From an uncultured Rhodobacterales bacterium (GTDB taxonomy: Bacteria > Pseudomonadota > Alphaproteobacteria > Rhodobacterales > Rhodobacteraceae), in NCBI GenBank assembly GCA_964489925.1, contig CAZBBZ010000002.1, positions 1 to 26,717 of the forward strand: a DNA stretch of 26,717 nt, written 5' to 3'. The notes below the pieces were generated by a model, which searched no databases, was not told the origin of the DNA, and saw nothing but the letters and a program-made list of their open reading frames with translations. A program made the position numbers and the translations under genes. Below are positions 1,535-25,609 of the stretch, in pieces (position 1 is the first letter of the stretch; each line of letters starts with the position of its first letter).

Positions 1535-1800
1535 CTAACAACTAAACCCGCTGCAGCCGCTTCCGCCGCCGCTATCATTGCTACTGCCACTATTGCTGCT
1601 GCCATTGTCGTCGTCATCATCGTCATCACGTCGATTCCGACGTGCGCGTCGCTCAGCGGCTTTCTTTGCGGCGGCCTGCTCTGCGGCTTTTACCGCTGCC
1701 GCTTGTTGTGCTGCCGCTTTTTGCGCAGCTTCCTGTTGTTCTCTGGCACGCCTTGCCGCTGCCCTCTGTTGGGCGATTTTGCGTCGTTCCGCTTGTTGCG
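1535..1800 (-). repeat. Low-complexity coding tail of the caspase gene (Ala/Gln/Arg-rich helix, Asp7 tract, Ser/Gly/Asn repeats)
   Basis: Encodes QQRAAARRAREQQEAAQKAAAQQAAAVKAAEQAAAKKAAERRARRNRR-DDDDDDD-NGSSNSGSSNDSGGGSGCSGFSC. The Asp codons at 1607-1627 are mixed GAC/GAT. Confidence 0.7.
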
Positions 1801-3286
1801 CACGAAACGCAGCAACATCGTCGTCGCTAATGGCGCGCCGCAGACGTATTAGAGTGGATTGCGTTGCCTCTCCGCTTGATGTCAGGCCGACTTGTTGTTC
1901 ATAGGTTTTGATGGCCGTGCGCGTGCGACTGCCAAAAAGACCATCAATCGGTCCCGGTTTGAAACCTAGGATGGTGAGCCGTTCTTGGATGTCACGCAAT
2001 TCGTTTCGCTTCAGTGGTTCCTCTGTCGGTACGACAGGTAGCGCGTCAGATGTCGTTGCGGCAAAACCCGTAGGAACCGCACTTGGGCGGTATCGGTTGA
2101 CCGGCAAAGACGCGAGCAAGCGAAGTGTTTGGTTCGCGGATGCAGCGCTTTTTTGCGCGATAGGGGCGAGGTCACGCCCCACCTTCGGCGCTTGATCTGA
2201 CAGCGCAAATTGTTGCGCCTTTGGCTCTGCTTTTTGGGCCGCTTCGTCTAGGGCTAGCGGTGGGGATGGTGCCAATTCAGGTTCGGGGGTTGGCACGCTT
2301 TGATTGAGTTTGTTCAAACGGTGCTTTGCAAAAGGGGCAAAGGCGCTATCGGGATAAATTTCCAGAAAGGTTGACAGAAGGTCCGGGTCGCGGGTGTCTT
2401 TGATCGAATTCCAAACGGCTTCTTGTTCTGCCAAATTCATCCGCGGCGCGTCGGGGGCAAGCGCGGGTTCTGCTTGCGGTGTTTGCTTTGGTTCGACAGG
2501 AGCCGACGCATTCAAGAACAGTTTCCTTGAGGAAAGAGAGCCATACCAAAACGGCTCTTGCTGGCCCCCGGTTAATCCATGCACACGGTCGCGCACCGAG
2601 CGCAGAAACAACCCGATTTCGAGGTTTGGCGTCTTTAATGCGTGAAGCAATGCTTCTGTATAGGGCGAATTCCGATCGTCCCCGTCGTAGGCGACTGTGC
2701 CCGCTTTGGCGGCATAAGCCACCACCGTATTCAATTTGGGCTCAACCGACGCAAGCCCTCGGCCGATAGACCGCGTGCCACCCGCCATTTGGTTGGCGAA
2801 GGGATTGTTGCGACAGGCATCCAGAATGACGAGGCTTAGTTCGGACGCCCCACTTGCCGCAAACACCACGTTATCAAGGGGAATGGTCTCAAAGGGGATG
2901 TCGAGATCGCTTTGCAGACGGGCATCGGTTGGGATCAAATAGTTTTGCTTTTCCACTTCAATTCCGTGTCCCGCAAAGTACACGATGGCGACCGCAGAGG
3001 TGCGCGCGTCTTGCTGGAAATCACGCAAGGCGCGCAACATTTCGGACTGGCTTGTATCCAGCTCGACCACCACTTCATACCCCAGATCGCTCAACGTGGC
3101 CGCCATGTCTTGGGCATCATTCTTGGGGTTCTTAAGTGCTGTCACCGCAGTATAAGAACTGTTCCCGATAACGAGCGCGACACGCCTTTCTGACGCTGCT
3201 GACCCAGATATGCCGACAAACATAAAAAGGATAAGCGCACTAAAGGCATATCGCACCGCTAAATCGGCTTTATCTTTGATCCCCAA
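1535..3286 (-). CDS. Caspase-family (peptidase C14) protease with N-terminal signal peptide and peptidoglycan-binding domain
   Basis: TTG start with AAGGAGG 7 nt upstream; hydrophobic N-terminal signal; RRVALVIGNSSY, LKNPKNDA, YFAGHG (His107), ILDACRNNPF (Cys158), AYAAKAG and NSPYTEALL motifs. Residues ~425-483 (IQERLTILGFKPGPIDGLFGSRTRTAIKTYEQQVGL) match PG_binding_1. Low-complexity C-terminal tail. Confidence 0.9.
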   Translation of the reverse strand: MGIKDKADLAVRYAFSALILFMFVGISGSAASERRVALVIGNSSYTAVTALKNPKNDAQDMAATLSDLGYEVVVELDTSQSEMLRALRDFQQDARTSAVAIVYFAGHGIEVEKQNYLIPTDARLQSDLDIPFETIPLDNVVFAASGASELSLVILDACRNNPFANQMAGGTRSIGRGLASVEPKLNTVVAYAAKAGTVAYDGDDRNSPYTEALLHALKTPNLEIGLFLRSVRDRVHGLTGGQQEPFWYGSLSSRKLFLNASAPVEPKQTPQAEPALAPDAPRMNLAEQEAVWNSIKDTRDPDLLSTFLEIYPDSAFAPFAKHRLNKLNQSVPTPEPELAPSPPLALDEAAQKAEPKAQQFALSDQAPKVGRDLAPIAQKSAASANQTLRLLASLPVNRYRPSAVPTGFAATTSDALPVVPTEEPLKRNELRDIQERLTILGFKPGPIDGLFGSRTRTAIKTYEQQVGLTSSGEATQSTLIRLRRAISDDDVAAFRAQQAERRKIAQQRAAARRAREQQEAAQKAAAQQAAAVKAAEQAAAKKAAERRARRNRRDDDDDDDNGSSNSGSSNDSGGGSGCSGFSC

Positions 3287-3322
3287 CCCGTGCCCTCCTT
3301 GGCATGCAATGCCGCAACTGCC

Positions 3323-4327
3323 CTAGTTGTTGGAGCCTCTAAACAGTCCGCTGAACGAGATCGGTTCGTTGCCGCTGCCCTTAATTGCTGTTCCAGACCC
3401 ACCGAATGAACCGATTGCTTCGCGGTAGGACGCATTGCCGACAAACCGCCCCGACAAGGTGCTGCTTGAAACGCTGATAGAGCTTATCGGGTCTGCGCCA
3501 GTGCCGTTGACCGATGTAAATTGAATGCCATTCGTGGCTGATATTGTGCCATCTGACATCATCGTGCCGTTTGTCAGCGTAACGGTTGGTGCCATTTCTT
3601 GGTTATCGGGGTCACCAGTTGCGCGAAACAAGTCGCCCGAAATTGTGTTGTTGTTGAAGTTTGCGGTCAGGTTCGTCGTGCCGCCAAACATCCGGCGCCC
3701 GTCTGACGTATAAAGATCCCCTGCCCCGGTAAAGGTGGCGATACCACCAACAGCGCCGGTTGCAGCCACGTTTAGATCAATGGGCCATCCGTAGAGGAAA
3801 TTCCCGCGGATGCGATGCTGTGTGAACGTGGGCGAAAACACTTCCGTTTCATTTCCGTAGATGCGACCCCAAATGCCGCCAGCATTGTTGCGGTGGATTT
3901 GCAATCGATCCCCTTGATCAGATTGATAAATCCACTCGTAAACAATCGTCGGCGATGTTCTGATCAAGACGGGGCCAGAAACAACAGTATAGCTTGCTGT
4001 ACCGCTCGGCGTGACGACATTGACCACGCGTTCATTGGATTCATCAACGTAGACCCCGATTTCATCGTGAGAAACCTCTGTGTTTCCTTCCGCGAAAGGT
4101 CGCACTCTGAGGTTTGGCAGGCTGTCGCTGATTTTTGATCGCGAGAAGAACCCAGTAAACAGGCCCGCGCCTTGCTCAACCTCTGGTGTACCAACATTGG
4201 CTGGTGCCGCGTTCAAAGGCACAAATCCAATCTCGTCACCGATGCTTTTGACGCCATCGGTGCCGCCGCCGCCACAAGCCAATAAACCAAAACAAGCAAA
4301 ACCGAGAAAAGTAGATTTCATAAACAT
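3323..4327 (-). CDS. Lipoprotein with transferrin-binding-protein (TbpB/HpuA)-like C-terminal beta-barrel
   Basis: ATG at 4327 preceded by GGGGGA; lipobox LLAC (Cys18) followed by a Gly-rich linker. The C-terminal half is Gly/Thr/Ser/Asn-rich with alternating beta-strand patterns (ATFTGAG, TNLTANFNNNTISGDL, LSGRFVG, EAIGSFGG) typical of TbpB-like barrels. Lipoprotein status is more certain than the family call. Confidence 0.7.
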   Translation of the reverse strand: MFMKSTFLGFACFGLLACGGGGTDGVKSIGDEIGFVPLNAAPANVGTPEVEQGAGLFTGFFSRSKISDSLPNLRVRPFAEGNTEVSHDEIGVYVDESNERVVNVVTPSGTASYTVVSGPVLIRTSPTIVYEWIYQSDQGDRLQIHRNNAGGIWGRIYGNETEVFSPTFTQHRIRGNFLYGWPIDLNVAATGAVGGIATFTGAGDLYTSDGRRMFGGTTNLTANFNNNTISGDLFRATGDPDNQEMAPTVTLTNGTMMSDGTISATNGIQFTSVNGTGADPISSISVSSSTLSGRFVGNASYREAIGSFGGSGTAIKGSGNEPISFSGLFRGSNN

Positions 4328-4351
4328 TTGGTATCCCCCGAAAAGAATCAA

Positions 4352-4544
4352 TTAATTTCACAACCATAGCAAGTAAAATTGGATGTTTCTAGGTTTTGCA
4401 TTCAACCTTTACGTTATAAGATGTGTGATCGGTGAGCCCCGTAGCTTCCAAATTACATTTAACCTTTGTTGCGATAGATAAAGACGGTTTTCCTGTACTT
4501 TGACGGCACCCTCGATGCGCCGATCAACCTAAAGTTTAGATGAT
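4352..4544 (-). promoter_or_regulatory. AT-rich intergenic region, probable own promoter of the lipoprotein-caspase unit
   Basis: 193-bp non-coding AT-rich stretch between the tagF stop and the lipoprotein start region. Contains the imperfect direct repeat TGCATTCAACCTTT (4397-4410) / TACATTTAACCTTT (4454-4467). Confidence 0.4.
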
Positions 4545-4988
4545 TTATGAAACCTCGGCTTTGCTCCACAGTAGCGGTGGGGCGATATTGCTGGCTTTGG
4601 AATGCGGCGGGTTCGGTAAAGACGCGAGCTTGTCCAGCAACGCATCTGGCAAAGACCTATGAGAGATCGCGTCCAGTGCGATGGGGGCGGCAAGGTCCGC
4701 CCATTGATCCGCGCTTGCCCGATCAACCTGTTCAACTGCGCAACAGACCGCGAGCGGAAACGCCCGACCGATCTTATCGTGACTTGGCAGGATCAGCAGC
4801 AACAGCGATGATTTGGGGCCTTGGATCACGGCCCGCATGCCGCCTTCGGGCCAGTTGTCCGGCTTATGCAGAGGTGAGACAAGGTTTTGTGTCACCCACC
4901 GGTCCAAAACAGGGCGCAGGCCCGGACCAAGTCCACGGCTTACAAAATCGCCGCTCGCGGGCAGCTTACCAAAAAAGCCAACGCTCAC
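4545..4988 (-). CDS. tagF: T6SS-associated protein TagF (short, stand-alone)
   Basis: GFFGKLPASGDFVSRG at the N-terminus and the PSHDKIGRAFPL motif are TagF/ImpM hallmarks; position directly after tssM. GTG at 4988 is the only in-frame start. Confidence 0.88.
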   Translation of the reverse strand: MSVGFFGKLPASGDFVSRGLGPGLRPVLDRWVTQNLVSPLHKPDNWPEGGMRAVIQGPKSSLLLLILPSHDKIGRAFPLAVCCAVEQVDRASADQWADLAAPIALDAISHRSLPDALLDKLASLPNPPHSKASNIAPPLLWSKAEVS

Positions 4989-5011
4989 TATTCAAACCCA
5001 CCATGCACGCC

Positions 5012-8000
5012 TTAAAACCCTTGCGGGCAGGTGAACCCGGAAAACATGCCGAGGTCGAACGGGTTCTGAACCGAATTTGCACGCAGATCAAAGACGGCAC
5101 GATGTGCTCCGGCGGCCAATGTCAGGCGAAACACCTCTGGTAGTGGCGTTGCCTTAAGGTTGCCGCTTCGGATCATGCGCAAAAACGCCCAGTTGCCGGT
5201 TTGTGATGTGATCACCTCTGGCGTGCCATCCACAGGCGCAAAGCTGAGCGTGATCATGTTGGTGCCATCCGGTCCGGGCCACGTCATTGGCGTTGGCCGC
5301 ACCCCTGCGTTGAAATACGTCATAGCCTGACCATCAACATTCAGAATGACACGACTGGCTGCGGGCGTCAGGTCTTTTGGTTCCAGCGAAAAGGCCATAA
5401 CCGGCCCTGCACCACCGGGAAATAACGCCATTTGCATAGCGCGCGCGTTTTGAAACGGCACGAGCAAGGACGGGTCGAGGCCAATGTCATTGCGCCACGC
5501 CCATGGGGTTTGAAACTCGTCGATAAACGGGGCGAGGTGATCCTTGGTGTAGGTGTCGATCAACTCTCCGGGGCCGAACAGCCGGGCAAAATCGGCGACA
5601 TTGACATCAATCGGGCTGGTTTGATCAAACGGGTAGCGCCCGCGCGTCGCCGAGGTACAAAACGCAAGAACATCTGCCCGCCAGCGCGCGTCAAGCTGGG
5701 CGATAATCGCATCTCGGGTAAAATCGATCGTGTCCCCGGCAATGCCTTTCACCCAGTCTGAAATCGGATCCGGCAAAAACGCGGCTTGATCGGCAATCAT
5801 CCCGGTCAGGTTGGGCAGCCCGCCCCGCTCTAGCAGGGCGGCTTTGGGATCGGTACTGGCAGCGACTGTTTGCAACTCGTTTGACAGCGCGGTCAATGCG
5901 GCCACTGTGTCGTCGATCAGCGGCGGCTTACCGTCGACTTCTTGCACAATGGCGCGGATCGGTTTGAAATGCAGCGCAACCGGCGCGCCGGGTTCGGCAA
6001 AGGTTTGCCCCGTCCCACCGCTTGATTTGGCGAGCTTGGCTCCCTTTTTTGCGAGTTTGCCGACTTTACCTAGACGTTTGGTCGCGGCTTGGAATATCCC
6101 TTTTTTCGCTTTGCTCCCGTCGGCAGCTTCGCCTGCCTGTTCATCGCGGGTCAGATTTGTCTGGCGCACGACCTCATCCAATAGCCGTTTGAGTGCGCTA
6201 TCCTCAGATGACAGATCCTTTAGATTGATGCGCGCCTCAGCAAGATCGGACATTGGCGTCAAACGGACATCACGCAAGAAACCGTCCCACTGGGCAATAA
6301 AGTCATCGTAGTAAAGCTTACTGATGTCAGCTTGCAGCGTCGCGGGCGAGGCGTCGGAATTTTCCGCACAGCCGCCCTCAAACACCGCGCGATCAAGGAT
6401 CGCTTGCGCCGCAACATTGGGAATTGCCGGATCAATGACCTGATGAAACGCCTCATAGGTAAATGCGCCCGAAAGCCCGACCCGCAGCGTTTTTTCAGAC
6501 AGGCGGGTGAGCACGCGGGTTCCGTTGGGGCCGGCATGCTCTGCAGGAATCCAGTCGGTCAGGGCGGTCACTTCTGGTTGCGCCATCAACGCGCGATAAG
6601 CGCGTGTAGCGAGGGGGATTGTGCAGATACTATCAAGTGCGGCCTGAACCAGTTCTGGTTCTGCTTTTATGCGGTCCTCTTCGGATGCCATCCGTTTGAT
6701 GGCGGCGATTTGGTGGTCGATCGCAACCTCTGTCGGAAAGATATCGATGGGGGCAAAGTCGGGCAAGTCGGTTTGCCACCAAGTTGTAACGAAGTCCTCA
6801 TCATAGGCCGCAAGCCCTGTCATCATCTGATAAGATTTCAACGCCCCAAGCAGAAAATCAGGGTCGCGGCTGTGGCGCCACATGGTTGCTTCTAATGTAG
6901 CGATCATGCGCGGCTCTAGGATGTTGCGCAACGTATGCTCATAAGCAAGCGATTGGGCCTGTGTCAGTTCGTCCAGTGCCGTCGGTCCAAAGGCGGCAAA
7001 CGGGCTGTCTTGTACCTGCGTGCCTGCGTTCAGTGTCTCGCTCGCCGCTTCAAGAGCGAGGTTAAGGTCAAGCGGTTCGGTCGGTGCTTGCCGTGCGGCC
7101 ACATTAGCAAGGCGCGCGGAAAGTTTGGTCAACTGGCGTTCCTGATCGTCCAGACCACCCGAATAGCGCAGATAGGAAAACACGAACATGGCTGTTGCCA
7201 ACATGCAAACCAGCGTGGCGCTTGCCAAGGTGCCACGCCAAATCTTACGGCGACGGTCTTCGGCCTTGGGGTCAAACGTACCAAGGCCAGCTTCTGGGAA
7301 AATCAGATCGCTAAGCAAATTGCGTAAAAAGAAAGAGCGCGTTTGTCCGTGGGCGCGCGGCTTTGGCGGGGTGATTTGCAAGCCAATGGCCCGGCTCATG
7401 CCTTGCACAAGTTGATCAATCGGCGAGCCTTCTTGCGTGGCCGACGTGAAATAGAACCCCCGCAGCCAAGGGCTATCTTCGTAGCGGCTTTCCCCAAACA
7501 CAGCATCAATCAAATGTTTCAGAGGCCCAACAAGTTGTTCAAATTGGCTGGGGAAGCGGAAGCTTGCGCCGCGATCCTCTAGGCTTTGATCCCCGGCCAA
7601 GCGATGCACCAGCTGATCTTCAAGTTGGGCTTGCAACGCCTTGGTTTCCTGCCCAACTGCCGCGCCATCCACACGCGTATCTGCGGGCAGCGTAGCGCCC
7701 CAAACTTGTTCTCGCTCACGGGTGGACAAATCCGCAAAAAATGGCTCAAACCCTGCGATCAAATCAGCCTTGGTGATCATCAGATAGACCGGAAGGCGTA
7801 GCCCCAGTTCATCTTGCAGCTCAATCAGCCGCTTACGGATTTCGCGGCCATGTTCGCGGATTTCGCTTTCGGGGCCTGCGAGTTCTTCCACCGAAAGCGT
7901 GACAATCACGCCGTTGAGCGCGCGGCGCCCGCGATGTTTGCGCAAAAGCGACAAAAAGCCTTTCCATTCGGCGGCATCAACATCGGGATCACTGGCTTGC

Positions 8001-8560
8001 TGCACATAGCGCCCAGCCGTATCCACCAGCACCGCCTCTTCGGTAAAGAACCAGTCGCAATTGCGTGTGCCCCCGACGCCCTTGAGGTCATCGGATAGAT
8101 CAATGGGGAAATGCAGTCCCGATTGGCGCAACGCCGTGGTTTTTCCTGTACCCGGCGGGCCGATAATCACATACCACGGCATGTCGCGCAGAAACTTGCG
8201 CCCCCCCAGTTTAGAGCGCTTCATCTGGTCAAGTATCTCGGCAAACTTGCTGTTCACTTCAGCGACGTTTTCGGCACCCGGCTCGCCCGGCTCTTCTGGT
8301 TGCGGAGTCACCAATTCAGAGACGAACACGCGGTTCTGGCGCGCGGCTCTTATCTGGCGAACCAAGACCCGCAACAGCCAAACGATCCAGAGCACGCCGA
8401 TGGCGACGACCTTGGCAACCGGACTATCAAGCGGAGCGATCTCGCCAAATTTGACAAGACCGCCAAACAGCCAGATCAGCACCGAAAAGACCAACAGCCC
8501 GATCATCGTCCAGAACAAGCGGGAAATCAAAAAGGCGAATACGGATTTCAGGATGCGCAT
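5012..8560 (-). CDS. tssM: T6SS membrane subunit TssM (IcmF)
   Basis: 1182 aa; N-terminal TM helices, MPWYVIIGPPGTGKTT Walker A, TRNCDWFF, DTAGRY, LNGVIV, RLPVYLMITKADLIAGF, LRGFYFTSATQEG and GRYPF motifs. Confidence 0.97.
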   Translation of the reverse strand: MRILKSVFAFLISRLFWTMIGLLVFSVLIWLFGGLVKFGEIAPLDSPVAKVVAIGVLWIVWLLRVLVRQIRAARQNRVFVSELVTPQPEEPGEPGAENVAEVNSKFAEILDQMKRSKLGGRKFLRDMPWYVIIGPPGTGKTTALRQSGLHFPIDLSDDLKGVGGTRNCDWFFTEEAVLVDTAGRYVQQASDPDVDAAEWKGFLSLLRKHRGRRALNGVIVTLSVEELAGPESEIREHGREIRKRLIELQDELGLRLPVYLMITKADLIAGFEPFFADLSTREREQVWGATLPADTRVDGAAVGQETKALQAQLEDQLVHRLAGDQSLEDRGASFRFPSQFEQLVGPLKHLIDAVFGESRYEDSPWLRGFYFTSATQEGSPIDQLVQGMSRAIGLQITPPKPRAHGQTRSFFLRNLLSDLIFPEAGLGTFDPKAEDRRRKIWRGTLASATLVCMLATAMFVFSYLRYSGGLDDQERQLTKLSARLANVAARQAPTEPLDLNLALEAASETLNAGTQVQDSPFAAFGPTALDELTQAQSLAYEHTLRNILEPRMIATLEATMWRHSRDPDFLLGALKSYQMMTGLAAYDEDFVTTWWQTDLPDFAPIDIFPTEVAIDHQIAAIKRMASEEDRIKAEPELVQAALDSICTIPLATRAYRALMAQPEVTALTDWIPAEHAGPNGTRVLTRLSEKTLRVGLSGAFTYEAFHQVIDPAIPNVAAQAILDRAVFEGGCAENSDASPATLQADISKLYYDDFIAQWDGFLRDVRLTPMSDLAEARINLKDLSSEDSALKRLLDEVVRQTNLTRDEQAGEAADGSKAKKGIFQAATKRLGKVGKLAKKGAKLAKSSGGTGQTFAEPGAPVALHFKPIRAIVQEVDGKPPLIDDTVAALTALSNELQTVAASTDPKAALLERGGLPNLTGMIADQAAFLPDPISDWVKGIAGDTIDFTRDAIIAQLDARWRADVLAFCTSATRGRYPFDQTSPIDVNVADFARLFGPGELIDTYTKDHLAPFIDEFQTPWAWRNDIGLDPSLLVPFQNARAMQMALFPGGAGPVMAFSLEPKDLTPAASRVILNVDGQAMTYFNAGVRPTPMTWPGPDGTNMITLSFAPVDGTPEVITSQTGNWAFLRMIRSGNLKATPLPEVFRLTLAAGAHRAVFDLRANSVQNPFDLGMFSGFTCPQGF

Positions 8561-8563
8561 TGC

Positions 8564-9919: not shown

Positions 9920-9921
9920 GG

Positions 9922-11256: not shown

Positions 11257-11293
11257 CGGTTGCGACGTTCCTAAAATTTATAGCCCAAAGTTC

Positions 11294-11743: not shown

Positions 11744-11745
11744 GC

Positions 11746-16656: not shown

Positions 16657-16676
16657 TTTGATGCCTTATGTGCCCG

Positions 16677-17159
16677 TCAAACGCCGCTTGCGATGTCATA
16701 TTCGATCTCGTGCTCATCACCAGCGGAATGATCATCGGCCTGCACGGTGTATTTGATCTGGACCTCTTCAAACGTGAAGCTGACAGATTCTTCGATCACC
16801 AGTTCATCGTCGGCTGTTGGCAGAATTGAGTAATCAGAAATAATCACATTGGTCATCGTGATGACGAGATAATCCAAATGCGCCTCGCCAGAGTCCTTGC
16901 GCACCGCCACTTTCACCTCGTCAAAGGATTTGCCCTGCATGGCTGCGAGCGCGAGGTAAGGGGAAGACGCGTCATAATATTTGGCGCAGGTCAATTCGCC
17001 GACAATGGCACGCGCTTTCGAGCGCCCCTTGCCTGTTTGCGCCGATGCACCTTGGCTGACGTTCCAAAGAATGCGGTGAACATCAATTTCATCTTCATGA
17101 TCCGCGCGCACGCTTTCGCCAGCGACGTCTGGGACCAATAGGTTGCCTGTTAGAGCCAT
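16677..17159 (-). CDS. hcp: T6SS tube protein Hcp (TssD)
   Basis: 160 aa; GES...HEDEIDV, KYYDASSPYL, YLVITMTNVIIS and EESVSFTFEEVQIKY motifs; strong SD (AAAGGAGA); immediately after tssC. Confidence 0.95.
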   Translation of the reverse strand: MALTGNLLVPDVAGESVRADHEDEIDVHRILWNVSQGASAQTGKGRSKARAIVGELTCAKYYDASSPYLALAAMQGKSFDEVKVAVRKDSGEAHLDYLVITMTNVIISDYSILPTADDELVIEESVSFTFEEVQIKYTVQADDHSAGDEHEIEYDIASGV

Positions 17160-17183
17160 AATAAGTCTCCTTTGGGTTCAGGT

Positions 17184-18692
17184 CTAAGATTTTACAGAAG
17201 GAAGTTCCGAGACGAGCCGCAGGCTCGCATTGATCCCTTCAAGTTGGTAATGTGGTCGTAAGAAAAAGCGGGCGTTGTAATAACCGGGGCGCCCTTCGAC
17301 GCTATCGACTTCCACTTCCGCTGCCGCGAGCGGGCGTTTGGCTTTGGCTTTGTCATCCGCCATCGCCGGGTTCGCCAAGACGTAGCGGTTAATCCACTCG
17401 CTGAGCCAAACCTGCATATCGCCGCGCTCTTTGAAGGTACCCACCTTATCGCGCGCAATGGCTTTGAGATAATGCGCAAATCGGCTAACCGGGAACAGAT
17501 ACGGCAAATTGGCACTGAGGCGCTCATTTGCTTGTGCATCCGGGTCTACCAGCTTGCCTGCTCTGGTTTCATCATCCTGCAAAGAATGCGCCCCGATAAA
17601 CGCGGCAAGATCGGTGTTCTTGCGGTGCAACACCGGCATCATGCCCAGCTTGGCCAGTTCCGCTTCGCGACGGTCATCAATCGCAATCTCTGTCGGGCAT
17701 TTCATCGCGATCGAGCCATCATCGGTGGGAAAGCTATGCACCGGCAAATTTGTCACCGTGCCGCCAGATTCAACGCCGCGTATCTGTGTGCCCCAGCCAT
17801 AAAGCTTGTGGCTGCGGTTGATATTGACGCCCATCGCAAAGGCGGCGTTCATCCACACGTAGTGGTCATGTTTGCCGTCGATTTTCTCTTCAAAATCAAA
17901 CCCCTTCACCGGCGTGGTTTCTGCACCGTAAGGCAAGCGCCCCAGCACACGCGGCATGGTCAGACCAATGTAACGAGAATCTTCGCTTTCGCGCAGCGAC
18001 TGCCAACTGGCGTAGTCAGGAGAGGACACAATGCCCTCTAGGTCTTGCGGGTTGGGTAATTCCTGCCAGCTTTCCATTTTGAACAACTGGGGAGCCGCCG
18101 CTGCAATAAACGGGGCATGGGCAGAGGCGCAGATGCCCGAAAGTTCGCGCAGCAAGCTGACGTCTTGGGGCTTGTGCGAAAACTCATATGCCCCGACCAA
18201 AGCGCCAAACGGTTCGCCACCAAATTGGGAGTATTCAGCCGCATAGATTTCTTTGTAGATCGGGGATTGATCCCACATTTGACCCTCAAAATCCTGCAAG
18301 ACATCGCCGAGTTCCTGTTTCTTCAGGTTCATGACGCGGATTTTCAGTTTTTGATCCGTCTCGGTGTTGTTCACCAAATAATGCAGGCCACGCCATGTGC
18401 CTTCCATCTGGCGCACATCTTCTGAGTGAAGAACTTCATTCATCTGTTCGGTCAGCATTGAATCGATGCTGCCAATCAGGGATTTGATGGATTTTATCGC
18501 ATTTCCGGAAATCGTCGCGGTGCCAGATCGTTCCTTTGCGGCGAGCGCGAGGTTTTGCACGAGTTTCTGGACTTTCTCACCTTCGGCATCTTTGACGCGA
18601 AAGTCCTTTTCCAGCAGATCGGTAAATTCGCCAAGGTCCAGCGCTTCTGCCTCGGCGGTTTTCTCAATAACTTGTTCGTCTTGCTTGGCCAT
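17184..18692 (-). CDS. tssC: T6SS contractile sheath large subunit TssC (VipB)
   Basis: EGTWRGLHYLV, FGGEPFG, SAHAPFIAAA, RYIGLTMPRVLGRLPYG, KCPTEIAIDDRREAELA, RFAHYLK and RPHYQLEG motifs. Confidence 0.98.
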   Translation of the reverse strand: MAKQDEQVIEKTAEAEALDLGEFTDLLEKDFRVKDAEGEKVQKLVQNLALAAKERSGTATISGNAIKSIKSLIGSIDSMLTEQMNEVLHSEDVRQMEGTWRGLHYLVNNTETDQKLKIRVMNLKKQELGDVLQDFEGQMWDQSPIYKEIYAAEYSQFGGEPFGALVGAYEFSHKPQDVSLLRELSGICASAHAPFIAAAAPQLFKMESWQELPNPQDLEGIVSSPDYASWQSLRESEDSRYIGLTMPRVLGRLPYGAETTPVKGFDFEEKIDGKHDHYVWMNAAFAMGVNINRSHKLYGWGTQIRGVESGGTVTNLPVHSFPTDDGSIAMKCPTEIAIDDRREAELAKLGMMPVLHRKNTDLAAFIGAHSLQDDETRAGKLVDPDAQANERLSANLPYLFPVSRFAHYLKAIARDKVGTFKERGDMQVWLSEWINRYVLANPAMADDKAKAKRPLAAAEVEVDSVEGRPGYYNARFFLRPHYQLEGINASLRLVSELPSVKS

Positions 18693-18696
18693 GATT

Positions 18697-19233
18697 TTAG
18701 TCCTCCGCGCTTGCAGCGTTTTTCAGGGCTTCTTCGGCAGCTTGTGCCAAAAGCGGCTCTGTGTTGAGCAACTGGGCGATGCGTTTTTCGGCATCAACCT
18801 TGCCATCCATGTAGCCAAGCAGTTCTTCGAGTTGGCCACGCATCTTTAGAAGTTCGTTAAGTGCCGGTACTTGTTGCGCCATTTTGTCGGGCGAGAAATC
18901 ACCCATGCTAGTGAAACTGAGATCGACAAACAGCTCGTCGTCCGCCTCTTCGCCTTCTGCAGTTGGGAGCGTGTTTTTGACGCGGGTTTTGACCCGTGGC
19001 CCCAAGGCTTCCATGAATTTGTTAAAGCGACCCGCGTCGGTTTCAACAAAGGTGCGTTCACCAACCGGCTTTTGGGCTTCGCGCGTCTCAGATTGGCCCG
19101 CTAGATCGGCCATGACGCCCATCACAAAGGGCAGCTCGATCGTCGTGGGACTGCCGTAATGCTCGACGTCATAGGCGATCTGCACACGTGGTGCGCGGTT
19201 GCGTTCAATTACTTTTTGTTTGCTTTCTGCCAT
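18697..19233 (-). CDS. tssB: T6SS contractile sheath small subunit TssB (VipA)
   Basis: RAPRVQIAYDVE, ELPFVMGVMADLAG, DFSPDKMAQQVPAL and LLGYMDGK motifs. Confidence 0.97.
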   Translation of the reverse strand: MAESKQKVIERNRAPRVQIAYDVEHYGSPTTIELPFVMGVMADLAGQSETREAQKPVGERTFVETDAGRFNKFMEALGPRVKTRVKNTLPTAEGEEADDELFVDLSFTSMGDFSPDKMAQQVPALNELLKMRGQLEELLGYMDGKVDAEKRIAQLLNTEPLLAQAAEEALKNAASAED

Positions 19234-19268
19234 GGAAATTGCCTTTCAAAACTGTTTGCAAAGTGGGT

Positions 19269-20426
19269 CTATTTTTTCTTGCCATCCTCAAGCCCGGCGG
19301 CGGCGCGGAACTCTTTCATTCCCGCAGGCGCGATTTCTTCCATCAATTCCAGAAAATCCATCGAGACCATGCGATGCATGCGCTGCGCCAGATGCGGAAT
19401 GGGACTTGAGGGTTCGGTGCGCTCGTAAAAGGCGATAATACCTTCCAGCGCGTGTTCAACGTCGCGCCGCGACCCGATGCTTTGTGGCATCACGCCATTT
19501 GAGGCCCCATTTATGGTCCCATTGGTCGCCCCGTTGGGGGCCGTACTGGTCGTGGTCGTCGCTGGTTTTTCCATCCCATTCGGCGCAGAAACTTGTGGTA
19601 TATCGTCTGTCGTGTCCGCGCTTGCCGCCTCCAGTGTTTTTTGTATCCGCGACAGCATCTCGACTGTCTCTGGCAGGCTTAGCCCCCCTGCCGTGTCTAG
19701 CTTGGCCTTGGCGCAGAACGCCGCACAAAGCGCGCCCGCCTTTTCCTGTGCTGCGATCACCTGATCCATCATTTCGGCCATCGCTTCTGGCGTTTCGGCG
19801 GCAAATGCGCGCGTCCCGGCGCGCACCCGGTTGACGCGCGTCTCGTGCTTGGCTTCATGTTCTTCAAGCTCGGCAGCGGTTGCTCCGCTGTAGCGTGACT
19901 TCAGATCGAAAAAACGCAGCGTGCCAATTTCCAGATCTTCGCCCGTTAGGGGACCAATGCCGCGCGGCGTCAAAACAACCGTACATTTCAAATCGCCCAG
20001 CAGCCCGTTTTCGTCATTCTCGATCTGCTTGAGCGCATTCAAGCGCCGTTGCACTTGGTCCGCTGGAGCGCCACTTTCGCGCAATTCTGGATGCAACTCG
20101 TCCCAGTGCTGCTCAAGCGTGCGCACCAAAACGTCAAATCCCTTCGTCAGCCCCTCAAAGCCATCAATCGCGAAACTCGCACGCAGGATCTTGACCATCA
20201 AACGTAGGTCGCGACCCTCTTTGGCTAAGGCCTGACCCTCACTGGCGATCTTGTCCCAATCCACCTGCGCTGCACCCGCGTTTGGAGTGCCATCTTGATT
20301 GCTGCGCAAGCTTCGCTCGGCTGGATCAAACAGCCGCTCAATCGCGTGAAAGCGCGCGTCGTTCCTCAAATCCTGCCCAGAAGGGTTATCGCCCTCAATC
20401 GGCAAAAGGAGGGCATCGTAATCCAT
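19269..20426 (-). CDS. tssA: T6SS TssA (ImpA family)
   Basis: ImpA_N domain (LLLPIEGDNPSGQDLR...VDW...GRDLRL...HWDELHPEL) and C-terminal SRRDV...FYERTEPSSPIP...MDFLELMEEIAP. ATG 20426 with a GGGG SD-like element is preferred over 20450. Confidence 0.93.
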   Translation of the reverse strand: MDYDALLLPIEGDNPSGQDLRNDARFHAIERLFDPAERSLRSNQDGTPNAGAAQVDWDKIASEGQALAKEGRDLRLMVKILRASFAIDGFEGLTKGFDVLVRTLEQHWDELHPELRESGAPADQVQRRLNALKQIENDENGLLGDLKCTVVLTPRGIGPLTGEDLEIGTLRFFDLKSRYSGATAAELEEHEAKHETRVNRVRAGTRAFAAETPEAMAEMMDQVIAAQEKAGALCAAFCAKAKLDTAGGLSLPETVEMLSRIQKTLEAASADTTDDIPQVSAPNGMEKPATTTTSTAPNGATNGTINGASNGVMPQSIGSRRDVEHALEGIIAFYERTEPSSPIPHLAQRMHRMVSMDFLELMEEIAPAGMKEFRAAAGLEDGKKK

Positions 20427-20676
20427 CGATTCGCCCCAAATATTTTTCAACTATTTGGTAACTATTACAGATCGGCCTGATTCTTGCAACGATTTCACAC
20501 CTGCGGTGTGTTCAATAAAACCCCTTAAAAATAGGCCTTAGCGTAACTCATCCTTTGTCAGCGCCCAAAACGAGAACAACCAATGGTGGAATTACCCTCA
20601 ACATTGGTCCGAAATTTTTTGGTCACTTAACGGCTTGCACCACCTGCGAGACCATCTAGTTTCAGGGGGTCAAAAC
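20427..20676 (-). promoter_or_regulatory. 250-bp intergenic region, probable internal promoter for the tssA-tagF operon
   Basis: AT-rich, non-coding, and the only large gap in the minus-strand run from clpV to tagF. Contains the direct repeat AACTATT-N4-AACTATT (20449-20466) and the inverted repeat CACACC-N3-GGTGTG (20496-20510). Confidence 0.5.
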
Positions 20677-23382
20677 TTAGGAAAATCTGTAGGAAAAGCC
20701 CTCGTCCGCACCGCTGACCGTCACGGCGTTCAGGCTTTCTTGGGAAAGCGAACGCGTCAGAATTTGACGGCTGAGTTCGGGGAGCAAAGTATTGGTCAAA
20801 ATCGCGTCGATCATACGCCCACCACTTTCAATTTCCGTACAGCGATCCTTGATCAACTGGATGGCGCTGTCTTCGATATTCAGCGTGGCGCCATACCCTT
20901 CGGCCAGTCGGGACGCGATGCCGCGCAGCTTGTGACCGGCGATTGCTTCGATCATTTTATCGGACAATGGATAATATGGGATCGTCACGACACGTCCCAA
21001 AAGAGCAGGAGGAAACACAGTCAACAGGGGCGACCGCAAAGCGGCGGTCAAAGCTTCGGTGTCAGCGGTTTTTTTGCCATCTTGGGTCATCGCCATGATC
21101 TCGTCGCTGCCAACATTGGAGGTCAACAGGATCAGCGTGTTCTTGAAATCAATGCGACGGCCTTCGCTGTCATCCATCATGCCTTTGTCAAAGACCTGAA
21201 AGAATATCTCATGCACGTCCGAATGGGCTTTTTCCACCTCATCCAACAAGACCACCGAATAGGGGCGACGGCGCACGGCTTCGGTTAGAATGCCCCCTTT
21301 GCCGTACCCCACATAACCCGGTGGTGCGCCCTTGAGCGTGCTGACGGTATGGGCTTCTTGAAACTCGCTCATATTGATCGAAATGAGGTTGTCTTCGCCG
21401 CCATACATTAGGTCCGCAATGGCCAAGGCAGTTTCGGTTTTGCCAACCCCCGAGGGGCCGCACAGCAGAAACACGCCAACCGGTTTTTCTGGAGCGCCAA
21501 GACCAGCGGTCGACGTCTGGATGCGGTTGGCGATCATTTCCATTGCGTGATCTTGCCCGACCACGCGCTCTGCCATATCCGCGGCAAGTCCCAGCGCGCG
21601 TTCGCTGGTTGAAGATAACATCCGCCCCATCGGAATGCCCGTCCAACTTTGAACAACGCCCGCAACGGCCTGTTCATCAACAGAAGGCAAGATCAGCGGA
21701 TTTTCTCCTTGGGCATCGGCCAGTTCCGCCATTTTAGCGCGCAGTTCCGTGAGCGTCGCATCGCGATCAAAAGGTTCGGTTTCTGGTGGTGCGTCTGGTG
21801 GTTCGGCATCCGCTGGTTCATCTGCGCTGCCAGTGTCATCAATGGTTTGCCCCGATGCCCGCAGTTTTGCGCGCAGCTCTAGCACATCATGCACCAACGC
21901 TTGCTCGTTTTCCCAACGCTCGTTCGCGCTTAAGAGGGCGGCGTTTTCCACCTCGATCGCCGCATCCACTTCGGCGCGCCGCTCGGTCACATCAATGCCG
22001 ATCTCGCCTTCGCGCTCTATGATACCGGACTCAATTTCAAGGGCGGAAAGGCGGCGCTGAATATCTTCCACCTCAGCGGGCGTTGCATGCTGGGAAACCC
22101 CCACACGCGCGCAAGCTGTATCCAGCAACGAGATCGCTTTGTCGGGCAGTTGGCGGGCAGGAATGTAGCGGTGCGAAAGCTTTACCGCCGCCTCAATCGC
22201 CTCATCCAGCACTTCGACGCGGTGGTGCTTTTCCAATACGCCGGTCACGCCGCGACACATCAAAATGGCTTTATCATCGGACGGCTCGTCAATCTGGACC
22301 GTCTGAAAACGCCGCGTCAGCGCCGGGTCGGGTTCGATGTGCTGTTTGTATTCCGCCCAAGTGGTCGCTGCGATGGTGCGCAATTCGCCACGCGCCAAAG
22401 GTGGCTTCAAGAGATTGGCCGCATCGCCCGTACCCGAGGCGCCCCCGGCACCGATCAGCATATGCGCTTCGTCAATGAACAATATGATCGGCGTCTCGGA
22501 GGATTGCACTTCTTCAATCACCGACTTTAGCCGTTTCTCGAACTCCCCCTTCACCGAGGCGCCTGCCTGCATCAGTCCGATATCGAGCATCTGCAAATCG
22601 ACGTTACGCAATTGCGGCGGCACATCGCCCTTGGCCAGCCGCTGCGCAAAACCTTCGACCACTGCGGTTTTGCCTACGCCTGCTTCGCCCGTGAGGATGG
22701 GGTTGTTTTGCTTGCGGCGCATCAGAACGTCGATGATTTGGCGAATTTCGACGTCGCGCCCAACGATCGGGTCCAAGGCGCCGTCACGTGCGCGCTTAGT
22801 CAGATTGGTCGCATAGGAGTCCAGAGCCGATTGGCCACCGGGTTTCGGCTTTTTGGCTGCTTCAGCGCCATCTTGAGGCTCGCCTCGTTCCAAGGAACTG
22901 GCGAGCAATTCGTCAAGTTGATCGGCCATTGCGGACGCATCAATCTTGTCAAATTCCAGACTGATCTTGAACATCAAGCCCTCAAGAACCGGCAAATTGA
23001 GCGCAGCAAGTAGGATGTAGGCCGAACGCACTCCATCGTCGCCAAACTCAAGTGAGCCGAAGTTCCACGCTTCTTGAATGGCGCGAAAAATGTGGTCAGA
23101 GAACTCTTCAACCGCGCTTGCGCCATGGGGAAGCGCATCAGTAGCACGCAGCAAATCGCCGGTTAACTTATGTCTATCCACCCCGGCTGCATCCAGCAAA
23201 ATATCGAAATCTGAACGCTCACTGTCAGCAAGTTCTGTTAAGAAGTGAACAAGCTCAACATAGGGATTACCGCGTTTTTTGGTTGCCTGAGCAGCATCCG
23301 AAAACGCCTTAAAACAGATTGGGTTCAGTTTGCCGACAAGCTCTTTTCGTTTGACGGTTTCTTGCGATCCACGAGGTGCCAC
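20677..23382 (-). CDS. tssH: T6SS AAA+ ATPase ClpV (TssH)
   Basis: ClpV N-terminus (LVGKLN...RGNPYVELVH), two AAA+ modules (GEAGVGKT / FIDEAH and GPSGVGKT / LLDEVEKAH), TTWAEYK and GAPPGYVGYG motifs; GTG start with GGAGG SD. Confidence 0.97.
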   Translation of the reverse strand: MAPRGSQETVKRKELVGKLNPICFKAFSDAAQATKKRGNPYVELVHFLTELADSERSDFDILLDAAGVDRHKLTGDLLRATDALPHGASAVEEFSDHIFRAIQEAWNFGSLEFGDDGVRSAYILLAALNLPVLEGLMFKISLEFDKIDASAMADQLDELLASSLERGEPQDGAEAAKKPKPGGQSALDSYATNLTKRARDGALDPIVGRDVEIRQIIDVLMRRKQNNPILTGEAGVGKTAVVEGFAQRLAKGDVPPQLRNVDLQMLDIGLMQAGASVKGEFEKRLKSVIEEVQSSETPIILFIDEAHMLIGAGGASGTGDAANLLKPPLARGELRTIAATTWAEYKQHIEPDPALTRRFQTVQIDEPSDDKAILMCRGVTGVLEKHHRVEVLDEAIEAAVKLSHRYIPARQLPDKAISLLDTACARVGVSQHATPAEVEDIQRRLSALEIESGIIEREGEIGIDVTERRAEVDAAIEVENAALLSANERWENEQALVHDVLELRAKLRASGQTIDDTGSADEPADAEPPDAPPETEPFDRDATLTELRAKMAELADAQGENPLILPSVDEQAVAGVVQSWTGIPMGRMLSSTSERALGLAADMAERVVGQDHAMEMIANRIQTSTAGLGAPEKPVGVFLLCGPSGVGKTETALAIADLMYGGEDNLISINMSEFQEAHTVSTLKGAPPGYVGYGKGGILTEAVRRRPYSVVLLDEVEKAHSDVHEIFFQVFDKGMMDDSEGRRIDFKNTLILLTSNVGSDEIMAMTQDGKKTADTEALTAALRSPLLTVFPPALLGRVVTIPYYPLSDKMIEAIAGHKLRGIASRLAEGYGATLNIEDSAIQLIKDRCTEIESGGRMIDAILTNTLLPELSRQILTRSLSQESLNAVTVSGADEGFSYRFS

Positions 23383-23440: not shown

Positions 23441-23460
23441 ATCTATAACACACTATAGAC
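23441..23460. promoter_or_regulatory. Palindromic operator in the divergent clpV/ppkA promoter (lux-box-like)
   Basis: ATCTATAACACACTATAGAC: perfect 6-bp arms TCTATA/TATAGA with a 6-bp spacer, fitting NNCT-N12-AGNN. Located at the midpoint of the 133-bp gap. Confidence 0.45.
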
Positions 23461-23515
23461 CAGTTTTTTCGATGACGCGATAGTTTTGAAAACGACCCTT
23501 AATTAGGAGCCAACG

Positions 23516-25609
23516 ATGATCGCAGAAATGCCGGGCGATATTTTTAGGACGGGGCAAATTCTGAACAACACTTACGAGATTCTCGGGGTGTTGGGGCGGG
23601 GCGGTACCGGTGAAGTTTATCTTGCGCGAAATCAAGTGGTCGAGCGTAACGTCGCCATAAAGGCGCTGAATCTGCAGTTTTCGGGCAATGCGGAATATCT
23701 GGAATTGATGAAGCGCGAGGAAGAAATGCGCGACATCGTTCACAATGCGGTGGTGCGCTATTCAGAGTGCTCAAAGTCCGATCAGGGCCATGTATTCTTG
23801 GTTATGGAATATGTTGACGGCATCTCATTAAGCGACGCGATGTCGGAACGGCGTCTGTCGAGCAAAGAGCTGATGATTATCGCGCATCGTGTGCTGGAGG
23901 GCCTCGTGGCTGTGCACGCGCATGGCATCGTGCATCGTGATCTGTCGCCGGACAATATCATCCTGCGCGACGGTCAGGCTGAGCGCGCAACGATCATTGA
24001 CTTTGGAATTGCCAAAGATACTGCCGCTGGCGCGCGCACGATTGTCGGCAACGAATTCGCCGGAAAATATGAATATGCCGCGCCTGAGCAGTTAGAGGGC
24101 CTAGCGGAGTATCGCACGGATCTTTATTCACTTGGCGCGTCGCTTTTGGCCGCGCATCAGCGAGATGTGCCGTTTGTTGGCGCTACACCGGGCGAGATTA
24201 TTAGGCGCAAGCAAGAACCGCTTGATACAACCGGGGTCGAGCCGCCGTTAAACGCGGTGATTGCTTTGCTATCCGCACCAGCGCTCAACGATCGCCCTCG
24301 TGATGCGGCGGCGGCGCTTGAAACGGTTGGGGGTCACTTGGCCCGCCAAGGCGAACCGTCTTCGTCAAAGGACAAGCGCGATAAACCGGGTCGGAAATCT
24401 GGGGCGCTCAAATGGCTTTTGCTGCCGGGTCTTGCTGCGGCGGCGGCTGCGTTTTGGTTTGGCTTTATGGCCGAAGAACCTTTGCCGATGGCGGCTCCTT
24501 TTGCGATGTCAGCGAGCTTTGAAGGTACAGGGAACGCCACGATAACGGCACATGCGCCCGATGAAATTTCGGCGGATTTGTTGCGTGAAGCTTTTGCAAG
24601 TTCAACCCAAACGACGTCGTTGCCCGGCAACATCACCTTGGCCCAAGGGGTGCCGTCCGAGGCGTGGTCCGCGCAGGTGTCGGACCTGTTGGGTCTGCTG
24701 GCCTCACTCGAAAACTGGACGCTGGACGTTGCGGACCAAAGCGCCACGATCAACGGACTGGCGCGTAATTTGAACACGCGTGCCACATCACAAGCGGCCA
24801 TCGAAAACTGGTCTGCGCAAGCTGGTTTTGACATGCAAATGAGCCTGATCGCTGGGCCAGAATTTTTGCAAAAACGCGATGTTTTGGCCGCGATTGAGCC
24901 GTTTCAGACCTGCGGCAAGCTTGACGTGGTTGGCGCGGAAGTGGACGGCGCATTCCCGCTTTTTGATACGCTGAAAATTCGTGGCGATCTGGCGGATGCA
25001 AATGAAGCCCCCGCATTGCAGGCCGTGTTGACCCCTCTTGTGGGTGATCGGAACATCAAAATGGAAACCGTCACCTTGAACGCGGATCTTTGCGCCATTC
25101 GCAACGTCTTGCCAGCGGCTGAGAGCTCTAGTCTGTTGATCTGGATGGGGGATGGTGAAACGGGTGAGATTTCTTTGACCGGTGCTTTTAAGACCGGGCA
25201 AAACCCAATCGTTGAAGTGCATTTGCCCGATGCGCGGCCCGACACGTCACTTTGGGTCATGGTTGTGGACAACACCGGCAAGGTTTACCACGTTTTACCC
25301 AATATCAATCGCACTGAGCATCAGGTTGGCAAACTGGGCGAAGTGTTAGGCGGCGTGCGTCAAGTTCGCGTGCTGCATTCCGTAGACGAGTTCAAACAGA
25401 ACAACGATCTTTTGGCCTTTGAGATTACCGAAGGCGACTATGGAAAAAGCGAGGTCATTGCGATTTTAAGCAAAACAGAATTGTTTGATCTGCGCCGCCC
25501 CAGAGACGAAAGCGTGTCATCATTTGCTCAAGCATTGGAAGAGGCGCTGGCAGGGCGCGAGGATCAAATTATTGCGGTTTCCAGCCGGATCATTGATGCG
25601 CGACCTTGA
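23516..25609 (+). CDS. ppkA: Membrane Ser/Thr protein kinase (PpkA-like) with periplasmic region ending in a probable DUF4384 domain
   Basis: AGGAG SD; Hanks motifs GRGGTGEVY, VAIK, HRDLSPDN, DFG, APE and DLYSLG; TM helix at ~299-318; C-terminal FKTGQNPIVEV...LWVMVVDNTGKVYHVLPN resembles DUF4384. The ppkA symbol is assigned from T6SS context and is not proven orthology. Confidence 0.85.
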   Translation: MIAEMPGDIFRTGQILNNTYEILGVLGRGGTGEVYLARNQVVERNVAIKALNLQFSGNAEYLELMKREEEMRDIVHNAVVRYSECSKSDQGHVFLVMEYVDGISLSDAMSERRLSSKELMIIAHRVLEGLVAVHAHGIVHRDLSPDNIILRDGQAERATIIDFGIAKDTAAGARTIVGNEFAGKYEYAAPEQLEGLAEYRTDLYSLGASLLAAHQRDVPFVGATPGEIIRRKQEPLDTTGVEPPLNAVIALLSAPALNDRPRDAAAALETVGGHLARQGEPSSSKDKRDKPGRKSGALKWLLLPGLAAAAAAFWFGFMAEEPLPMAAPFAMSASFEGTGNATITAHAPDEISADLLREAFASSTQTTSLPGNITLAQGVPSEAWSAQVSDLLGLLASLENWTLDVADQSATINGLARNLNTRATSQAAIENWSAQAGFDMQMSLIAGPEFLQKRDVLAAIEPFQTCGKLDVVGAEVDGAFPLFDTLKIRGDLADANEAPALQAVLTPLVGDRNIKMETVTLNADLCAIRNVLPAAESSSLLIWMGDGETGEISLTGAFKTGQNPIVEVHLPDARPDTSLWVMVVDNTGKVYHVLPNINRTEHQVGKLGEVLGGVRQVRVLHSVDEFKQNNDLLAFEITEGDYGKSEVIAILSKTELFDLRRPRDESVSSFAQALEEALAGREDQIIAVSSRIIDARP

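Follow-up and report, generated by a model that had tools for sequence, protein, structure and literature searches.

Exported caspase-family proteases (Peptidase_C14) with an intact catalytic dyad are a recurrent class of accessory genes of one type of type VI secretion system (T6SS), in which a membrane Ser/Thr kinase of the TagE/PpkA type is encoded next to the T6SS core. The association was noticed in a 26,717 nt stretch of DNA from an uncultured Rhodobacterales bacterium (the window). The window is the entire contig C2 (CAZBBZ010000002.1, assembly GCA_964489925.1) of a metagenome-assembled genome that is 84% complete and consists of 590 contigs. Genes in the window were identified from an open reading frame (ORF) listing and by profile searches with Pfam and NCBIfam. 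A reading of the sequence alone had placed the T6SS core between a lipoprotein/caspase pair and a membrane kinase, and every gene that it named was found at its position (Table 1). Whether the caspases work in the periplasm as part of the kinase pathway is a matter to which we give an even chance; the lipoprotein is an add-on at most.

The linkage was measured in 30 genomes that have the kinase, in which every PF00656 match and every kinase gene was mapped. Thirty-five of 79 caspase genes are at most 45 kb from the kinase, where 1.65 are expected from genome size; this is an approximately 20-fold excess. At least one caspase gene is found within this distance in 25 of the 30 genomes, and in 15 of the 18 among them that were chosen only for long contigs. 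The caspase-kinase distances pile up at about 25 kb, which corresponds to the far end of the T6SS cluster. Within 10 kb of the kinase, where core genes fill most of the space, a caspase is present in 11 of 80 kinase loci. Relatives that have a full-length kinase on a contig of sufficient length all have caspase homologues at a distance of 2–12 kb from either the kinase or TssA. The 6-Mb genomes of Rhizobium croatiense and Sinorhizobium glycinis each have a single full caspase match, which is at the T6SS. ORF calls are crude in DNA of high guanine plus cytosine (GC) content, and positions determined by tblastn were used for loci L043, L139, L150 and L166, where several ORFs are wrong-strand artefacts. 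The sequence-only reading had proposed that exported caspases and DUF4384-like kinases would be linked to T6SS loci, and the neighborhood survey extends this linkage across many genera.

All 18 aligned T6SS-adjacent caspases keep the motifs AGH[GA] and D[AS]CR, which contain the His/Cys dyad. A signal-peptide-like N-terminus is present in nearly all of these; two sequences have none, perhaps with an ORF start called too far upstream. The common build is a signal peptide, the C14 domain and Sel1/TPR repeats, to which a peptidoglycan-binding domain, weak or clear, is often added.

In a maximum-likelihood phylogeny of 48 caspase domains, five or more clades with good support consist wholly or mostly of T6SS-adjacent members from different genera, and each of these clades has its own partner genes. 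The adjacency label changes seven times on the tree compared with 12.4 times in shuffles (0 of 500 shuffles were as low).

The gene orders differ between groups. Litoreibacter, the closest relative, whose core proteins are mostly 50%–90% identical to those of the window, has the order caspase, OmpA, PP2C-M15-IcmF-like-VgrG, TagF-TssM...ClpV, kinase. Rhodovulum iodosum has caspase, PP2C, M15, IcmF-like and VgrG genes in a row on one strand, with the caspase ORF directly against PP2C. In Yoonia sediminilitoris and Paracoccus methylarcula the order is OmpA-TpsB-TpsA-caspase; in P. methylarcula, as in Paracoccus lutimaris, the tpsA stop and the caspase start have a 4-bp overlap. A second T6SS subtype, the kinase of which is 35%–38% identical, shows caspase-M15-OmpA-kinase-PP2C-TagF-TssM. 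Shimia and others have the kinase, a 451 amino acid (aa) protein, the caspase and a 143 aa protein, and in Rhizobium a Sel1-caspase and a glycosyltransferase-like gene are upstream of a VgrG gene. M15_4 peptidases and OmpA-like proteins are the commonest neighbors of the T6SS-adjacent caspases. The conserved unit is thus not the trio of lipoprotein, caspase and kinase that had been put forward from the window; the recurrent units are instead a caspase with OmpA/M15/PP2C, OmpA-TpsB-TpsA-caspase and kinase-TpsB-TpsA-caspase.

Conserved caspase neighbors of 451, 235, 143 and 168 aa have no Pfam family. The protein of approximately 143 aa directly follows the caspases of one T6SS-adjacent clade in six genomes and is 39%–56% identical to the copy in genome G016 (L053:11025-11456, L046:9974-10402, L084:5939-6364, L072:15213-15719, L121:11053-11466); in some genomes it is preceded by the 235 aa protein. 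The caspase clade with the Rhizobium and Sinorhizobium members has a glycosyltransferase-like protein of 750–790 aa (Glyco_tran_28_C) as its companion (L157:10615-12891, L158, L159, L095, L058, L148/L149, L018). In an uncultured Ruegeria, a close relative, an FGE-sulfatase gene is located directly after the T6SS-border caspase. An FGE-sulfatase-like stretch is also found within or just beside the ORF of a caspase paralogue in G005 and G041, which suggests a fusion in these two genomes. The loci of these FGE-sulfatase cases are L161:2934-6480, L165:7765-9786 and L010.

By its homologues and gene context, the kinase is the TagE/PpkA-type T6SS kinase that is conserved in Rhodobacterales and Rhizobium. 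All of the 80 kinase loci fetched are T6SS-linked, with the usual order ClpV(-), kinase(+)-TssA-TssB. The nearest matches are in Litoreibacter, Ruegeria, Rhodovulum and Paracoccus, and the kinases found in Rhizobium and Sinorhizobium species are 44% identical over the whole protein. The protein has a Hanks-type Pkinase domain at residues 20–225 (123 bits, Pfam), one hydrophobic segment at approximately positions 297–320, which is the predicted transmembrane segment, and a C-terminal region of 378 aa that is 38%–57% identical across Rhodobacterales (120 homologues). In an alignment of 55 homologues the pair Cys466/Cys526 is invariant, which fits a periplasmic location of this region.

An AlphaFold2 model of the C-terminal region, based on the 55-homologue alignment, has a predicted local distance difference test (pLDDT) value of 94.3. 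The N-terminal units of the model match BON domains (OmpATb/Rv0899, DolP) in a fold search. The best AFDB matches of model residues 134–377 are clusters named DUF4384 (E-value = 1.3e-13, template modelling score by hit 0.69, both structures being predicted). Three BON-like units, together with an Ig-like sandwich for which DUF4384 proteins are the match, make up the modelled periplasmic region. The resemblance of the periplasmic end to DUF4384, which had been suspected from the sequence, is thus borne out by the predicted fold but not by the Pfam profile, since PF14326 scores 13–15.6 bits where the cut-off is 27. The precomputed DUF4384 family was found on none of the 120 kinase homologues.

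A kinase-domain gene and a caspase gene also occur 6–11 kb from each other at sites away from the T6SS locus examined (G035:C4:50672-58128 and G022:C89:6428-19202); TssK was not found in G022. The caspase-kinase pairing may thus be wider than T6SS.

The remainder of the T6SS island in the same genome can be followed by homology along the contig chain C2-C334-C224-C77. Contig C2 breaks off within tpsB. The remainder of tpsB, with the C-terminal half of the barrel, and the start of tpsA, which encodes the N-terminus of the TPS-domain protein, are on C334. C224 has the end of tpsA, a 654 aa C14-Sel1 caspase and DUF6484, with a 353 aa gene and a PAAR toxin gene on the opposite strand. C77 has an adaptor-like gene, DUF2169 and OmpA, followed by PP2C, M15, IcmF-like and VgrG genes. 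The complete kinase-TpsB-TpsA-caspase set is found on a single contig of a near relative. From this chain the genome appears to have two T6SS-border caspases, that of the window and that of C224. The C224 caspase is the conserved one by its gene order, and it would close the kinase-TpsB-TpsA-caspase operon that begins in the window. A complete set for control by threonine phosphorylation is present, with the kinase, Fha and TagF encoded in the window and PP2C on C77 beside VgrG; in relatives PP2C adjoins the kinase or TagF.

The block on C77 (L144, G000:C77, positions 1857-9161) consists of OmpA on the minus strand, then PP2C, the M15_4 peptidase, the IcmF-like protein and VgrG. The M15_4 peptidase has an N-terminal hydrophobic segment and is TagX-like. 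The IcmF-like protein (814 aa) has a DotU-like N-terminus and gives no full TssM profile match. The same block is also found in Litoreibacter, Rhodovulum, Ruegeria, Yoonia and Paracoccus.

TagQRST genes were not found in the window or on C77, C224 and C334, where TagQ, TagS and TagT were not searched by profile and the genome is 84% complete. Their absence from the window had been pointed out before; the edge of the window is also the edge of the contig, and so the whole genome was considered. The only FGE-sulfatase gene of the genome, which we take to be of the TagR domain type, is on contig C269, where no T6SS core gene or ABC-transporter-like neighbor was recognized. The absence is no special trait of this system; according to a 2026 review, TagQRST has been studied only in Pseudomonas (PMC13584744). 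A neighbor of the FGE-sulfatase gene on C269 resembles the glycosyltransferase-like protein of the clade C caspases.

The window caspase displays a Peptidase_C14 match at residues 34–251 (PF00656, 142.5 bits, cut-off 21.4) and a PG_binding_1 match of 58.5 bits (Pfam). The dyad consists of His107 within AGHG and Cys158 within DACR. The protein begins with a hydrophobic, signal-peptide-like N-terminus and Peptidase_C14. These are followed by a helical motif, W..YP..A..RL, which is conserved, then by PG_binding_1, a stretch rich in Ala/Gln/Lys/Arg, a run of acidic residues and, at the C-terminus, a tail of Gly/Ser/Cys. The caspase is at the tagF-side border, where the closest relatives have a caspase beside OmpA and PP2C. 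Its TTG start codon is 36 bp past the lipoprotein stop codon and is preceded by AAGGAGG, an arrangement by which the two genes appear translationally linked.

The C-terminal end of the window caspase (positions 1535-1660), with the acidic run and the Gly/Ser tail, terminates in GC-x-x-FSC, and no family was recognized for it. The same terminal motif (GCGTFSC) closes a homologue in a same-genus genome without T6SS (G002:C114:7737-8837, L162). This homologue is 48% identical and consists of no more than the C-terminal two thirds; the catalytic p20 part has been lost, and no trace of it is left upstream. The GC-x-x-FSC terminus may be a sorting or modification signal. Locus L164 (G022:C41, positions 8265-15290), in a genome for which no T6SS was shown, has two clear tandem caspases that are 36%–40% identical to that of the window and a weak third (25%). 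A 487 aa gene between the caspases is a possible fourth, an OmpA-like gene adjoins, and a response-regulator-like gene is nearby (from its N-terminus only).

The lipoprotein has the lipobox LLAC followed by GGGG, which is a flexible linker. No Pfam or NCBIfam family matches it at threshold; the Pfam profile TbpB_B_D gives an E-value of 0.059 and 14.3 bits compared with a cut-off of 26. Its look-alikes by language model (ESM) are TbpB_B_D/fHbp clusters at 0.96. An AlphaFold2 model from a two-row alignment has pLDDT 39.8 and is unusable. The lipoprotein is thus probably of the TbpB/fHbp beta-barrel class, with the fold only a lead. Neither a Slam gene nor a TonB-dependent receptor gene is beside it in the window, and the sole SlipAM (Slam) homologue of the genome is on an unrelated contig, C416.

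A homologue of the lipoprotein was not found in 60 relatives, two same-genus genomes included, nor in any other T6SS locus examined. Among 5.8 billion proteins there is one homologue, which is 84% identical and is encoded on a contig from a metagenome, where the order is again TagF-lipoprotein-caspase. This distribution marks the lipoprotein gene as inserted between tagF and the caspase gene in one lineage, and its product as at most a lineage-specific add-on. The GC content is 0.52–0.53 at 3–5 kb (positions 3001-5000, the lipoprotein gene and spacer) compared with 0.56–0.59 in the surroundings, in keeping with a lipoprotein gene that was inserted recently. The AT-rich spacer may be the promoter region of the lipoprotein-caspase pair; a scan of positions 1300-5200 gave no consensus promoter, and promoter and terminator sites were no more numerous than in shuffled sequence. 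The lipoprotein, which the sequence-only reading had counted as part of the module, is accordingly to be dropped from it. The genes of interest are the caspases, the OmpA-like protein, the M15 peptidase, TpsAB and the kinase.

In the mechanism that we propose, wall-tethered or filament-associated caspases would act at the periplasmic, sensor side of the kinase pathway. Their targets would be the BON/DUF4384 sensor of the kinase, an OmpA-like partner or the TpsA filament, and cleavage would set the timing with which the kinase switches on T6SS assembly. Action at the sensor side is suggested because the caspases are in the constant company of wall-binding or wall-cutting proteins and a phosphatase, because DUF4384 and FGE-sulfatase domains occur on both caspases and kinases, and because the FGE-sulfatase gene directly follows the caspase in one close relative. 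The caspases might even be the switch that is missing upstream of the T6SS kinase in Alphaproteobacteria, where a tethered protease would sense envelope damage or cell contact, cut the BON/DUF4384 sensor or a bound inhibitor, and trigger assembly; we regard this more specific form as conceivable but doubtful.

Several observations weigh against a role of the caspases in the kinase pathway, a role deduced from gene context. More than half of the counted caspase copies fall outside the 45-kb range of a kinase, and caspases are multi-copy in many Rhodobacteraceae. Five of the 30 genomes are without a caspase within 45 kb, some of these assemblies being fragmented. The 30 genomes are related, so that the counts are not independent, and about a third were picked with knowledge of the content of the neighboring 10 kb on each side. 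The contrast with T6SS-positive genomes that are without this kinase type, and for which no caspase is listed at the T6SS, comes from two genomes only (G009 and G005). The clade C caspases, those of Rhizobium included, are also syntenic with the glycosyltransferase-like gene, which may be their true partner. With respect to the window, its caspase is outside all of the T6SS-adjacent clades and groups with five paralogues whose genomes or loci have no T6SS (G005, G017, G022, G025; support 97/89), the nearest of which have contexts unrelated to T6SS.

That last result argues for a reading in which the caspases are border cargo: mobile, abundant paralogues would gather at the variable edges of T6SS islands without a functional tie, and the caspase-lipoprotein pair of the window would be a recent arrival. 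The orphan state of the lipoprotein and the lower GC at 3–5 kb agree with this, as does the varying position of the caspase between loci. Furthermore, TssK and the kinase were not found in either of the two same-genus genomes (G001 and G002, 85% and 89% complete), and thus, within the genus, the T6SS island of approximately 46 kb seems either variable or acquired. We nevertheless consider border cargo to be unlikely as a general explanation. It does not account for the 20-fold excess of caspases near the kinase, for the sole caspase copy being at the T6SS in several genomes, or for a linkage that spans Rhodobacterales to Rhizobium, where the kinase is 33%–44% identical. Several distinct caspase clades are each syntenic with T6SS, and the abutting caspase and PP2C genes of Rhodovulum iodosum are on the same strand. 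The caspase of the window is a separate matter. It had been presented as a member of the T6SS module, but the other sampled members of its clade are not T6SS-linked. In the tree its group is the sister of a ten-member, all-adjacent clade that holds the Litoreibacter border caspase; the window caspase may have replaced, as a paralogue, the caspase that usually occupies this border, or it may have arrived by chance.

A tie to the filament rather than to T6SS control is also to be considered. Here the caspases would be proteases that mature the TpsA filament in trans, and they would be adjacent to T6SS only because the TpsAB operon is beside the kinase. The caspases of clade B directly follow tpsA, in two Paracoccus species with the stop/start overlap described above, the order kinase-TpsB-TpsA-caspase is found in the window's own genome and in a near relative, and peptidases of the caspase-like type are known to process secreted polymorphic toxins (PMC3482391). 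This explanation too appears improbable for the class as a whole, because most T6SS-adjacent caspases (clades A, C, D and E) have no neighboring TpsAB and are beside OmpA, M15, PP2C or the kinase, and the window caspase and TpsB are at opposite ends of the island. Much less probable is the chain that the sequence-only reading had drawn, in which a TbpB-like surface lipoprotein senses the outside and signals to a wall-anchored caspase, which activates the kinase. The 36-bp spacing and the strong ribosome-binding site do suggest co-expression of lipoprotein and caspase, and the TbpB-like look-alikes and the Slam homologue elsewhere in the genome fit a surface lipoprotein. However, the lipoprotein is known in only two sequences and in no other T6SS locus examined, and its fold could not be modelled. 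The caspases as defensive or antagonistic periplasmic enzymes, which degrade incoming effectors or are toxins themselves and are not regulators, is the explanation that we find hardest to credit. Effector and immunity genes are usual at T6SS borders, and PAAR-toxin, DUF2169 and DUF6484 modules are beside some of the caspases, but a Sec signal peptide speaks against export by T6SS, no small immunity-like gene is consistently paired with the caspases, and the conserved neighbors are regulators and wall-binding proteins.

The system has similarities to the P. aeruginosa H1-T6SS, where a membrane Hanks kinase (TagE/PpkA), PP2C, Fha and TagF are likewise encoded with the T6SS and envelope proteins are encoded beside the kinase. 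It differs in that TagQ, TagR, TagS and TagT were not found in the island and in that a caspase-family protease is present, which is not part of the Pseudomonas system. The periplasmic domain of the Pseudomonas T6SS kinase is a vWA domain, whereas BON-like repeats and a DUF4384-like sandwich are predicted here. Closer systems are those of Agrobacterium tumefaciens (PpkA-TssL-Fha) and Rhizobium etli Mim1 (tagE), which are alphaproteobacterial T6SS with TagE, TagG, TagH and TagF. The R. etli kinase is of the same family as the kinase of the window (44% identical over the full length) and adjoins tssA. The upstream signal of the Agrobacterium and Rhizobium T6SS kinases is not known to us. Caspases are not mentioned in the papers examined on the T6SS kinase pathways of these two organisms; a tssA-tagE deletion mutant of R. 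etli Mim1 is mentioned (PMC10215855).

A precedent for a lineage-specific input is RtkS of Serratia, a periplasmic protein that replaces TagQR upstream and acts on the periplasmic domain of TagE (PMC13584744). RtkS is not a protease, and for the caspases an action on the kinase is only hypothesized. With its PG_binding_1 domain, the window caspase is comparable to the envelope accessory proteins that bind or cut peptidoglycan, i.e. TagX (an M15/VanY-type L,D-endopeptidase) and TagL/TagN/TagP, but unlike TagX the caspase fold cuts proteins and not peptidoglycan. In domain content the proteins resemble the bacterial orthocaspases/metacaspases (Peptidase_C14), where a p20-type domain, a His-Cys dyad and accessory Sel1/TPR, FGE-sulfatase and DUF4384 domains are typical. 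The orthocaspases studied so far are, to our knowledge, cytoplasmic and function in stress, cell death or phage defense, whereas those described here are predicted to be exported and wall-binding and are T6SS-linked. DUF4384 is known to be fused to orthocaspases and is present on kinases (PMC6426788). In a 2012 survey of polymorphic toxins, caspase-like domains are processing peptidases inside toxins and not stand-alone T6SS neighbors (PMC3482391). A 2026 review of T6SS accessory factors covers TagE, TagG, TagH, TagQRST, RtkS, TagX and others, and the words caspase and protease are absent from it (PMC13584744).

No description of T6SS-linked bacterial caspases was found in the open-access literature on T6SS together with caspase, metacaspase, Peptidase_C14 or DUF4384, in agreement with the sequence-only reading, which knew of no account of the module that it proposed. 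The T6SS-linked exported caspases are a new class of T6SS-associated accessory gene. As far as we know, the activation of T6SS kinases outside Pseudomonas and Serratia is an open question. The conserved, dyad-intact exported caspase beside the kinase is a concrete candidate activator, and it is genetically accessible in Rhizobium etli, Ruegeria, Paracoccus and Shimia. If the proposed role is true, bacterial caspase homologues would have a periplasmic signalling role apart from the cytoplasmic roles in cell death and phage defense, two-partner-secreted filaments would be tied to T6SS control, and a bacterial weapon would be controlled by a proteolytic, caspase-based signalling step.

Table 1. 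Features of the window and the basis of their identification
Feature	Position	Strand	Basis
Exported caspase-family protease, 583 aa	1535..3286	-	Peptidase_C14 and PG_binding_1 (Pfam, NCBIfam)
Orphan lipoprotein, 334 aa from ATG	3323..4327	-	lipobox LLAC-GGGG
AT-rich spacer, 217 bp, tagF to lipoprotein gene	4328..4544	-	sequence reading
TagF, 147 aa, TagF_N only	4545..4988	-	PF09867, 59.8 bits; TIGR03373, 64 bits
TssM	5012..8560	-	TIGR03348, 1136 bits
TssL with C-terminal OmpA domain	8564..9919	-	DotU and OmpA domains
TssK	9922..11256	-	PF05936, 351 bits
TssJ lipoprotein	11294..11743	-	PF12790
Fha (TagH), phosphopeptide-binding partner in the kinase pathway	11746..13059	-	FHA and T6SS_FHA_C domains
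TssG, TssF, TssE	13059..16656	-	PF06996 and GPW_gp25; TssF named via Pfam match on near-identical relative contig
Hcp, TssC, TssB, TssA	16677..20450	-	Pfam; TssC named via VipB proteins of relatives, 84%–92% identical
ClpV (TssH)	20677..23382	-	TIGR03345, 1216 bits
T6SS Ser/Thr kinase (TagE/PpkA type)	23516..25609	+	Pkinase (Pfam), homologues, T6SS-linked loci
TpsB (ShlB-type) transporter, N-terminal half, first 319 residues	25760..26716	+	POTRA_2; gene cut by contig end

Below position 1482 the plus strand of the window encodes an amidohydrolase, a glyoxalase and LysE, and these genes are convergent with the caspase gene. Because they end facing it, the caspase is the terminal gene of the T6SS island. 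The tssL ORF as listed encodes 494 aa (positions 8564-10048) and overlaps tssK. The TssL proteins of relatives have a chain length of 451 aa and align from residue 44 of this ORF, and the true TssL start is thus probably at position 9919.

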